Source of the DNA: a virus
Lineage: Duplodnaviria; Heunggongvirae; Uroviricota; Caudoviricetes
IMG/VR virus record: IMGVR_UViG_2718217787_000008
Direction: 5' to 3' (one strand)
Length of the DNA: 46,821 nucleotides
The position numbers were made by a program. Below are positions 15,001 to 18,000 of the stretch, piece after piece. Within the stretch, counting starts at the first letter, position 1; each line of letters begins with the position of its first letter.

Positions 15001-18000
15001 GATCATTTAACTCTAATTTGGGATAGTAAGACTCTCTCGCCTGAATTTCTGCCCAGTCATTCACGCGAATAAAACTTTCGCCATTCTTGAGAAAAATCAT
15101 ACTCGTCCTTACTGTGGTTAGATTTAAAGCATATCCATTTGATATTTAATCACTATTCTTTTTGTATTTCACCTAAAACCATTTTGTTTTCATGTTTAAT
15201 GTGACTGATGTATCATCACTCCCCCAGCCATTTTAGCTAAATGATGAGAGCGACTCATAATCGCCAGGTCGCTGGTTCAAATCCAGCAAGGGCCACCATC
15301 ACATACCGCCATTAGCTCATCGTGACAGAGCGCCAGCCTTCGAAGCTGGCTGCGCGGGGCTCGGGTCCCCGATGGCGGTCCATTATCGGTATTCTGCGTT
15401 TTTAGCTCAGCCGGACAGAGCAATTGCCTTCTAAGCAATCGGTCACTGGTTCGAATCCAGTACAACGCGCCACACCACACTTATCTGCCCTGACTCTCTT
15501 TTGCGGGCTTTTTATTACAGGAAAGACACCGGACAGTGAAATGTTAAATGCCTCACAATTCAGGTAGTTGACTGTTGCCTGACATGCTGAGCGTTTGTTA
15601 AAAAAATCCTGCATGGTGAATCCCCCTGGGCGGCGGGGCATAATGACAGATGTTTGGTTGCGTATTGTATAGGCAAGTTGCGGATTCTGTCTGGTCATTG
15701 CAGAATTCACCGGGAGGCACCCGGCATCATGCTGTATACAGAGATTAGGCATATATCTAGGCTCCTCATCGCAGGAGCCTTTTTACATGCAAAAAAAGCC
15801 CGAGTAGGTTCGGGCAACAGCATGAGATACTTGCATTGTCATTTTTATCGTGTGGATTTTAACCAGGGTTTATAAGGCTGCGCAACTGCGCGGCCTTTTT
15901 CGTATTGCGGGCTGTAGTCTTCCTTCTGTCATTGTCCTGTAACTTCCGGACTTCAGCCCGCCCCTTATCTGACTCACAACATCATCCCGGCCGGGAGGAT
16001 TCATGGCATTTAAACACTATGACGTGGTCAGGGCGGCGTCGCCGTCAGACCTTGCGGATGCGCTTGCTCAAAAAATTCGTGAAGGATGGCAGCCATACGG
16101 CGGGCCGTTTTCTTCGTATACGGATGATGGCGCAGCACTTATTCAGGCGATTGTCGCAGAAGGTGATGTGAGCACACCTGTTGTGGTGAAGCCGTCGGAT
16201 GGAGAAGGCACAGTAATCAGCGCCACCAGAGACCCGGAGTATTACTTTGTTGTGGTTCTGGCGGGGCAGTCAAACAGCATGGCATATGGTGAAGGCCTTC
16301 CGCTGCCGGAGACATATGACCGTCCGGACCCGCGCATTAAGCAGCTGGCGCGTCGCAGTACGGTGACACCGGGCGGTGTCGCCTGTAAATATAACGACAT
16401 CATTCCGGCGGACCATTGTCTGCATGATGTGCAGGACATGAGCCGCCTTAACCATCCGAAAGCGGACCTGTCAAAGGGGCAGTACGGAACCGTGGGGCAA
16501 GGGCTGCATATCGCCAAAAAATTGCTGCCGTTTATACCGGCGAATGCGGGCATTCTGCTGGTTCCGTGCTGTCGTGGTGGTTCAGCGTTCACCACCGGAG
16601 CCGATGGCACATACAGTGACGCGAGTGGTGCCTCGGAGAATTCAACCCGCTGGGGTGTGGACAAGCCGCTGTATAAGGACCTTATCGGTCGAACAAAAGC
16701 AGCACTGAAGAAGAATCCGAAAAATGTGCTGTTTGCCGTGGTGTGGATGCAGGGGGAATTTGATTTTGGCGGTACGCCGGTAAATCACGCAGCACAGTTT
16801 GGTGCGCTGGTTGATAAATTCCGTGCAGACCTGGCGGATATGGCAGGTCAGTGCGTCGGTGGCTCTGCTGGCGGTGTTCCCTGGATATGTGGAGATACGA
16901 CGTATTTCTGGAAGCAGAAGAACGAATCCACGTACCAGACGGTGTACGGCAGCTACAAAAACAAAACGGAAAAGAATATCCATTTCGTACCGTTCATGAC
17001 GGATGAGAACGGGGTGAATGTGCCGACGAACAAACCGGAAGAAGACCCGGACATTCCGGGTATCGGATATTACGGTTCGAAATGGCGTGACAGCTCAGCC
17101 ACCTGGACGTCACAGGACAGGGCGAGCCATTTCAGTTCATGGGCTCGCCGCGGGATTATTTCCGACCGTCTGGCAACGGCGATTTTGCGCCATGCGGGAA
17201 GAGTGGCGCTAAACGCGGGGGCATCATCGACAGTATCAGAGGTGCGCCCGTCATCGCCTTCCGGTGCAGAAGCCACAGGCGTCACAACACTGCTCTCTTA
17301 CCTTGCCAGCGAGTCAGAGGGAAGCCTGAAAGTACAGGGATGGTCAGCCAGTGGCGGCAGGGCAGAAGTGGTCAGCGATGCGGAGGGAACCGGAGGTAAG
17401 GCAGTGAAGCTGACCAAGGAAGCCGGTAAAAGCAGCTGGGTGCTGGAGTACGCCGCGGGCAACGGTGCGGCTCTGTTACAGAAAGGGGGGCAGATTCGCT
17501 GCCGCTTTAAGGTTTCGGGAGCGCTGGCTGCGAACCAGTATGTTATGGCGTTTTACTGGCCGGTATCTTCACTGCCACAGGGCGTTGCCCTGACCGGAGA
17601 CGGGGGGAATAACCTGCTGGCAGCGTTCTACATCCAGACAGATGCAAAAGACCTGAATGTGATGTACCACAATGCGAAAGTGGCGACAAACAACCTGAAA
17701 CTGGGAACCTTTGGCGCATTTGATAACGAATGGCATACGCTGGCTTTCCGCTTTGCCGGGAATAACAGCCTTCAGGTGACGCCGGTTATTGATGGTCAGG
17801 ATGGCACACCGTTCACGCTGACGCAGTCACCGGTCAGTGCATTTGCGGCGGATAAACTGCATGTGACAGACATTACCAGGAATGCGACTTACCCGGTGCT
17901 GATTGACAGCATTGTGGTGGAAGTGAACAACGCGGATGCCGCGGCATGATAAAAAAAGCCGCCAGTTGCCTGAGACCTCTGGCGGTGTGAGATTCATGGA

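Follow-up and report, generated by a model that had tools for sequence, protein, structure and literature searches.

The 46,821-nucleotide (nt) stretch of viral DNA analysed here, referred to as the window (IMG/VR record IMGVR_UViG_2718217787_000008, Caudoviricetes), contains what is very probably the late-operon 'moron' site of a lambdoid prophage without Shiga toxin (Stx) genes. The site itself would be unoccupied, and the interval between the argO-like tRNA gene and the nanS-p gene would be a small RNA (sRNA) locus with a convergent pair. From 15200 to 16010 the window has 100% identity to the chromosomal sequence of Escherichia coli O157 strain Al Ain (NZ_CP043539.1), a camel isolate in which the matching segment is a prophage. 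The arrangement is already described in the literature, and the value of the analysis lies mainly in correct annotation: what looks like a 'non-coding gap' beside the stx insertion site is, on this reading, a conserved sRNA hub, and regulatory RNAs of Stx phages are also carried by stx-negative prophages.

The elements that bear on this reading are as follows.

15473-15552, no strand: unoccupied moron (stx) site; 15498-15513 is the remnant of a post-argO hairpin common to Stx2 phages
15582-15790, plus strand: sRNA of the STnc100/PasD/EcOnc27-28 family (Rfam RF02076, 173 bits)
15759-15785 (stem 15759-15780), plus strand: hairpin 1, intrinsic terminator of the STnc100-family sRNA, AGGCTCCT-CATCGC-AGGAGCCT followed by T5
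15850-15791, minus strand: EcOnc03, an anti-sRNA of the AgvB/AsxR class; terminator stem 15815-15798, U-run 15797-15791
15856-15885, minus strand: putative EcOnc03 promoter, TTGCGC-18-TAAAAT, read from the sequence; the -10 ends 6-7 nt ahead of the RNA start
15874-15900 (stem 15874-15897), plus strand: hairpin 2, a conserved intrinsic terminator, AAGGCTGCGC-AACT-GCGCGGCCTT followed by a T-run (10-bp stem, T5)
16003-17949, plus strand: nanS-p-type sialate O-acetylesterase (Pfam DUF1737, SASA and DUF6645)

The interval would thus hold two autonomously transcribed, Hfq-dependent sRNAs whose expression, Hfq binding and sizes are taken from near-identical published loci. The STnc100-family RNA would be made from the late strand and have its 3' end at hairpin 1. 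EcOnc03, of about 56-60 nt, would come from the opposite strand and end at the minus-strand hairpin. In Stx phages, a pair of this type directly follows stx1B or stx2B.

The match of the plus-strand RNA to the STnc100 model is well above the family threshold (gathering 47, E=2.2e-40) and covers the full model, positions 1-206 of 206. Hairpin 1 corresponds to the terminal stem of that model. It folds at -13.4 kcal/mol (z -3.5 against dinucleotide shuffles) and shows compensatory changes at two stem positions across six loci, so the RNA has the 3' Rho-independent terminator with a conserved and compensated stem that is expected of the family. A northern probe for EcOnc27 matches the homologous site. 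The mapped 5' end of PasD2 aligns to window position 15611, just past a -10-like TAAAAA(A)T that nine diverse loci have in common; the window RNA probably starts near this position, with the -10 at 15599-15607, and a longer form starting near 15553 could exist as well. A conserved TTGACT (15568-15573) was considered as the promoter of this RNA and rejected, as it stands 25 nt from the -10-like TAAAAA, which is the wrong spacing. Weak Rfam matches (Trp, Phe and Leu leaders, snoZ30, NsiR1, Plastid-ycf2) were also discarded; they are below gathering and fall on terminator hairpins or on the antisense of a tRNA remnant.

The assignment of the minus-strand RNA comes from direct comparison with the published EcOnc03 of prophage Sp9 (Tree et al. 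2014, Fig. S4), which reads AAATGACAATGCAAGTATCTCATGCTGTTGCCCGAACCCACTCGGGCTTTT. Over 51 nt the window RNA has a sole mismatch to it, one terminator-loop base (CCCA to CCUA). Sp9 of E. coli O157:H7 Sakai is the source of both EcOnc28 and EcOnc03, and it is near-identical to the window from argO to hairpin 2. The RNA has the composition of the anti-sRNA class (51-60 nt, of which about 42 nt at the 3' side are conserved and include the terminator and 14-18 nt at the 5' side vary): its 3' part, AGUAUCUCAUGCUGUUGCCCGAACCUACUCGGGCU7, matches the class, and its 5' part is CGAUAAAAAUGACAAUGCA. The minus-strand hairpin, GCCCGA-ACCTAC-TCGGGC followed by T7 (15815-15791), folds at about -11 kcal/mol. 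The two RNAs converge, with terminators 5 nt apart (15785 and 15791), between argO and its adjoining slot on one side and nanS-p on the other. EcOnc03 was found in 520 of 5426 complete E. coli genomes.

Within its class the RNA is neither AgvB proper (RF02702, anti-GcvB), since CACAACA, the mimic of the GcvB R1 target, is absent from the 5' region, nor AsxR proper (RF02703, anti-FnrS), for which it reaches 44 bits against a gathering threshold of 63, the copy in Stx2a phage P13374 scoring 88 bits. The anti-sRNA of Stx2a phages is AsxR, whereas the variable 5' region in the window is of the EcOnc03 type. The putative EcOnc03 promoter scores 8/12 and was not reported by the promoter scan. Its -35-like hexamer TTGCGC is kept in TL-2011a-type loci, where, in our unchecked reading of the reverse complement, a -10-like TATTAT lies about 18 nt downstream.

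Loci of this kind have been characterized experimentally. Tree et al. (2014, PMC4104026) described 'convergent sRNA pairs 3' of PR' in the moron insertion site' in the Sakai prophages Sp3, 4, 5, 9, 10, 11, 15 and 17, using northern analysis, 5'-RACE and Hfq-CRAC; the EcOnc27/28 homologues were seen there by Hfq-CRAC and northern. The plus-strand partner is EcOnc28 in Sp9 and EcOnc27 in Sp5 (about 235/247 nt). EcOnc27 is the same as sRNA103 of EDL933 (PMC12711010), a strain in which STnc100-family copies have RNA-seq and northern evidence, and STnc100 has been located 75 nt past stx2 (PMC12370729). PasD of enteropathogenic E. coli (EPEC) is related to STnc100 and lies upstream of an esterase gene (Zhu, Shabalina and Storz, 2026 preprint). 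PasD1, PasD2 and PasA are prophage sRNAs of EPEC E2348/69 (Pearl Mizrahi 2021; Zhu, Shabalina and Storz 2026). PasD2, directly upstream of the sialate-esterase gene, aligns with the STnc100-family RNA of the window over the 5' half and the terminator, but the window copy has not kept the PasD seed region, which pairs with CUCACAGG. Concerning a host target of EcOnc03, we found no follow-up in the searchable literature since 2014.

Several observations weigh against the proposed sRNA pair or against details of it. RNA ends and promoters at this locus are inferred from homologues, and for the STnc100-family RNA two 5' ends come into question, one near 15611 by homology with PasD and one near 15553 if the RNA resembles the 235/247-nt EcOnc27. 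On 15850-15791 the AgvB threshold is barely reached (56.2 bits against 56) and that of AsxR is missed, so that the assignment rests on identity with EcOnc03, whose putative promoter has a weak -35 (3/6). Finally, no covariation was seen in hairpin 2, whose core does not vary and whose outer pairs lack conservation; the substitutions neither support nor contradict the structure.

A sequence-only reading of the window had found no credible open reading frame (ORF) in the interval. This holds inasmuch as RefSeq annotates no coding sequence (CDS) in 15473-16002 and insertions and deletions, in comparison with homologues, have lengths not divisible by three; the interval nevertheless contains two sRNA genes. 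That it encodes small proteins instead, as annotated in some phage records (ORF45 and ORF46 of P13374; a 75-aa CDS in YYZ-2008), is scarcely credible. ORFs can be found mechanically at 15654-15875 (plus strand, 73 aa) and 15402-15752 (minus strand, 116 aa), such 'hypothetical protein' CDSs do appear in phage records, and some STnc100 copies in EDL933 carry ribosome footprints. However, these ORFs overlap argO or run through the terminators, indels of 1, 2 and 5 nt among the homologues preserve no frame, PGAP annotates nothing or only pseudogenes, and a structured-RNA model is matched over its full length with 173 bits. We rejected the protein-coding reading on the indel pattern and on the overlap with terminators and tRNA.

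The position of the sRNA pair relative to the stx insertion site was established by a MAFFT alignment with the Stx2a phage P13374. Both sequences have the tRNAs and a short hairpin after argO; the stx2 promoter, stx2A and stx2B then follow in P13374 only. Homology on the left stops about 40 nt past argO, at window position 15513, and resumes on the right at 15553, 45 nt past the stx2B stop, so that 39 bp in the window (15514-15552) stand against 1341 bp in P13374 (stx2 promoter and stx2AB). For Stx1a phages, homology begins at 15539, which is 39 nt past the stx1B stop. The breakpoints do therefore coincide with the boundaries of the stx cassettes, but they delimit a much smaller site than the sequence-only reading had assumed: the stx-equivalent gap measures 39-66 bp (15473/15514-15552) and does not extend over 15473-16002. 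The three hairpins that had been placed in this supposedly empty slot were found where they had been predicted (15759-15785 on the plus strand, 15815-15791 on the minus strand and 15874-15900 on the plus strand). All three nevertheless lie to the right of the gap, in a segment also carried by Stx1 and Stx2 phages. They belong to this conserved downstream segment because members of both sRNA families also follow stx2B in P13374 (STnc100 208 bits, AsxR 88 bits) and stx1B in YYZ-2008 (STnc100 191 bits, AgvB 56.6 bits).

No trace of stx was detected in the window. In a blastn-short comparison of the stx2 cassette with the whole window, only the flanks matched (15498-15513 on the left, 15553-15581 on the right) and all else was at chance level; tblastn with StxA and StxB likewise gave only chance-level matches. 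Hence stxA and stxB, which in an Stx-converting phage lie between the late promoter with its tRNAs and nanS-p, are both missing, and the proposal that the prophage is an stx-free relative of the Stx phages is confirmed.

Whether stx was once present and lost is a separate question. Descent from an Stx phage through precise loss of the cassette is very unlikely. Flanks that are 82-95% identical to Stx-phage sequence, with breakpoints at the cassette boundaries, would agree with such a deletion scar, and repeated loss of stx was raised as one possibility for such loci by Zhu et al. On the other hand, no remnant of stx is left at the DNA or protein level, and the right boundaries of the Stx1 and Stx2 cassettes differ (15539 and 15553). 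In the best-matching Stx-phage records homology begins only at 15248, and the Q/pR' module and all other sequence to the left of that position are unrelated to them. An identical empty junction (15465-15600) is widespread, being present in 469 of the 5426 complete E. coli genomes with at most four copies per genome. Twenty-one complete genomes share the left module of the window (Q, a reverse ORF of 314 aa termed ORF314, and an ileZ remnant); one of them, STEC799, has another empty variant. In E. coli CAU16175, a prophage with the same module and the same argN and argO has genes for a TerB-family and a DUF3927 protein in the stx-equivalent slot (6623-7218 of locus L010). Nothing, then, indicates loss. 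The pattern at the site fits modular exchange rather than a recent deletion of stx, because the left module's nearest relatives have a different cargo there or a further empty variant. The CAU16175 genes represent an alternative cargo at the site equivalent to window 15473-15552.

The tRNA genes that precede the site had been read as a trio of ileZ-, argN- and argO-like genes. Two of the three are intact.

15227-15298, plus strand: remnant of ileZ (tRNA-Ile/Met, CAU); Rfam tRNA 36 bits, compared with 72.5 bits in intact copies
15306-15382, plus strand: argN-like tRNA-Arg (UCG), called by ARAGORN; Rfam 46.5 bits
15396-15472, plus strand: argO-like tRNA-Arg (UCU), called by ARAGORN; Rfam 64.3 bits

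The 3' two-thirds of the ileZ remnant are identical to intact ileZ, whereas its 5' part has diverged and has a 4-nt deletion that takes out part of the D-arm and of the anticodon stem. The remnant is not called by ARAGORN or annotated by PGAP, and the complete cloverleaf of a functional tRNA-Ile2/Met is not seen by tRNA finders. High-identity homology to other genomes begins within it, at 15248. The junction looks as if diverged tRNA copies had recombined and a non-functional tRNA had remained. In the segment 15216-15298, the boundary between an AT-rich module and the tRNA block falls within ileZ, and over the 5' 20-30 nt the similarity to ileZ is about 65%. The argN-like tRNA has an odd T-arm, GGGGCTCGGGTCCCC instead of GGGGTTCGAGTCC, and its Rfam score is below the 52-55 bits of homologous copies. 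The argO-like tRNA has two differences from argO3 of Sakai Sp9. A promoter-like match for the tRNAs, TTTTCA-18-TATCAT, was reported by the promoter scan at 15187-15216.

Upstream of the tRNAs lies a late promoter module of the lambda type.

13204-14019, plus strand: late antiterminator Q of the lambda-Q family, 271 aa (Pfam PF03589, 173.5 bits)
14059-14088, plus strand: pR'-like late promoter, TTGACT-18-TATCAT, with a lambda-like Q-binding element (QBE), ATAAAATTG, in the spacer (promoter scan)
14128-14157, plus strand: tR'-like intrinsic terminator about 40-60 nt past the pR' start, with a 10-bp stem and T6
14156-15100, minus strand: ORF314, AT-rich, antisense to the late operon and located between tR' and the tRNAs (phrog_7003 of unknown function, E=2e-118)

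The Q protein belongs to phrog_127 ('anti-termination protein Q-like'), matches lambda Q (PDB 7UBM) at E=5e-33 and is named 'antitermination protein' in RefSeq. The pR'-like site is the top promoter match of the region (10/12). When aligned with lambda pR', its TTGACT, the spacer motif ATAAAATTG and the ATGGG after the start all correspond, and the terminator (-14.8 kcal/mol, z -3.6) aligns with lambda tR'. By sequence, then, the region appears to contain the succession that defines a lambda-type Q antitermination module: a Q homologue, a pR' with a Q-binding element and a tR'. It resembles the Q - pR' - 6S RNA - tR' module of lambda in its Q homologue, -35, QBE-like motif, ATGGG and subsequent intrinsic terminator. 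It differs in the length of Q (207 aa in lambda) and of the terminated leader (about 40-60 nt, against 194 nt in lambda) and, unlike lambda, has a reverse ORF, tRNAs, sRNAs and nanS-p ahead of the lysis genes. The Q-like gene and the tRNAs do come in the order given in the sequence-only reading, but they are not adjacent, as pR', tR' and ORF314 stand between them.

In lambdoid late regulation, tR' places everything downstream under the control of Q, and polymerase modified by Q disregards later terminators. By homology with lambda, late transcription in the window would start at pR' and halt at tR' unless Q modifies the RNA polymerase. The modified enzyme would then read through the antisense ORF314, the tRNAs, the sRNA terminators, nanS-p and the lysis genes S, R and Rz.

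This organization bears on the idea that the hairpins are stacked cis-acting terminators in a vacated stx slot, which would make expression of nanS-p and of the lysis genes strictly dependent on antitermination. There are indeed two good plus-strand terminators between the tRNAs and nanS-p, hairpin 2 is kept whatever the type of the neighbouring sRNA, and nanS-p is induced along with the late genes; an insulating side-effect on transcripts begun past tR' is plausible too. However, the downstream hairpins cannot be the source of a 'strict' Q dependence, because tR' directly past pR' already imposes it. Moreover, two of the hairpins, hairpin 1 and the one on the minus strand, form the 3' ends of known sRNA genes, the latter could not end late transcription, and the hairpins lie outside the slot and are present equally in Stx1 and Stx2 phages. 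We consequently regard the terminator stack as improbable. As a measure of density, the 4.9-kb region has 10 terminator-like sites, compared with 5.3 +/- 2.2 expected from shuffles.

Hairpin 2 precedes nanS-p by about 100 nt, shares positions with the putative -35 hexamer of the EcOnc03 promoter and folds at -18.3 kcal/mol (z -3.7 against dinucleotide shuffles). Its core, CTGCGC-AAnn-GCGCG followed by T5, is invariant in six loci, including TL-2011a-type loci with a different minus-strand RNA, and 734 complete E. coli genomes contain the hairpin, at 1702 places in total. In the lysogen it would likely stop, ahead of nanS-p and the lysis genes, unmodified polymerases that come from tRNA and sRNA promoters past tR'. 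It is plausible that hairpins 1 and 2 together insulate these genes from such autonomous promoters. Hairpin 2 may have two roles, as a late-strand terminator and as the -35 of the promoter for the antisense anti-sRNA, the latter formed by the loop and the descending arm. That it thereby acts as a switch element is conceivable but rather unlikely: on induction, read-through by Q-modified polymerase would occlude or collide with EcOnc03 transcription. If true, the switch from lysogeny to lysis would be coupled to the shut-off of the EcOnc03 anti-sRNA.

The overall synteny with the late regions of Stx phages, proposed from gene order, was upheld by phage alignments and gene identities, and the Q-like, nanS-p-like and phage-21-type lysis genes by their Pfam matches. 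Window 13200-18100 is matched by 385 phage records, the majority of them Stx1a, Stx2a and Stx2c converting phages, with about 94.5% identity from 15248 rightwards. Stx2a phages (933W, Sp5, P13374) have the order ileZ-argN-argO, stx2AB, EcOnc27 (STnc100)/AsxR, nanS-p and lysis genes. The window keeps this order and is about 82-95% identical over the tRNAs, the STnc100-family sRNA, the convergent anti-sRNA, hairpin 2, nanS-p, DUF1378 and DUF826. Its Q and pR' region is of another type and so is its holin, which is the phage-21 S.

Prophage Sp9 of Sakai is stx-negative and lambda-like. As in the window, ileZ and argO lie upstream and nanS-p, S and R downstream, and near-identity from argO through hairpin 2 includes the 'empty' junction. 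The locus reads argO3 - EcOnc28 / EcOnc03 - ECs_1781 (nanS-p) (Tree et al. 2014, PMC4104026). Sp9 differs from the window in having an intact ileZ, no argN, another Q and, upstream of the tRNAs, a DNA methylase where the window has the reverse ORF314. The two sequences also diverge 3' of hairpin 2 and at the 5' end of nanS-p.

The nanS-p gene has the domain order of the prophage esterases, DUF1737 - SASA - C-terminal DUF6645, stands upstream of the lysis cassette and has about 94.5% DNA identity to the gene of Stx2a phages. In Stx2a strains nanS-p is up 1-2.4 log on mitomycin C (PMC10462455). The genes further downstream are as follows.

18655-18870, plus strand: phage-21-type holin S (Pfam PF04971)
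18871-19431, plus strand: ORF of 186 aa inserted between holin S and endolysin R (phrog_1085, unknown function)
19474-20007, plus strand: lysozyme R (Pfam PF00959)
19986-20471, plus strand: Rz (Pfam PF03245), with Rz1 embedded at 20224-20409

The 186-aa ORF has no Pfam match, and its homologue in strain 13E0780 is frameshifted.

The RefSeq annotation of the neighbourhood can be given in three parts.

Upstream: DEAD/DEAH helicase, toprim protein, hypothetical protein and 'antitermination protein' (13204-14019)
Middle: reverse hypothetical protein (14156-15100), then two tRNA-Arg genes
Right: DUF6645/SASA protein (16003-17949), DUF1378, DUF826, class II holin, hypothetical protein, lysozyme, lysis protein and terminase

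In the top matches, RefSeq/PGAP has no feature over the EcOnc03 or hairpin-2 segments, though both sRNA families are in Rfam, and in some records the STnc100 copy is instead covered by fragments labelled as a pseudogene or as a 'hypothetical protein'. The replication or early-right module at 9719-13204 (plus strand) encodes a DEAD/DEAH helicase, a toprim-domain protein and a 285-aa phrog_6204 protein and is not of the lambda O/P type. The Q gene comes right after it, without the nin genes present in the compared Stx phages.

The product of ORF314 has no match in Pfam, PADLOC, NCBIfam or a PDB sequence search. Its region has a GC content of 30-40%, compared with 50-57% in the flanks, and the ORF occurs with an identical junction in the 21 complete E. 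coli genomes mentioned above. The ORF, which includes a Cys/His-rich stretch, CGKSNCRKGHKKG...GHVCG, may be a moron or defence gene.

A further minus-strand element abuts the stop codon of nanS-p (17951-18075). It consists of a strong intrinsic terminator, GCCGCCAG...CTGGCGGC followed by T7 (-16.3 kcal/mol, z -3.9), and, about 90 nt upstream on the same strand, a promoter-like site TTGACT-17/18-TAAAAA. PasA of E2348/69 is only partly alignable with it (66% column identity, with large gaps). Position and orientation nevertheless match those of PasA (EcOnc51/52) in EPEC and enterohaemorrhagic E. coli, and the terminator abuts the esterase stop as in the long form of PasA.

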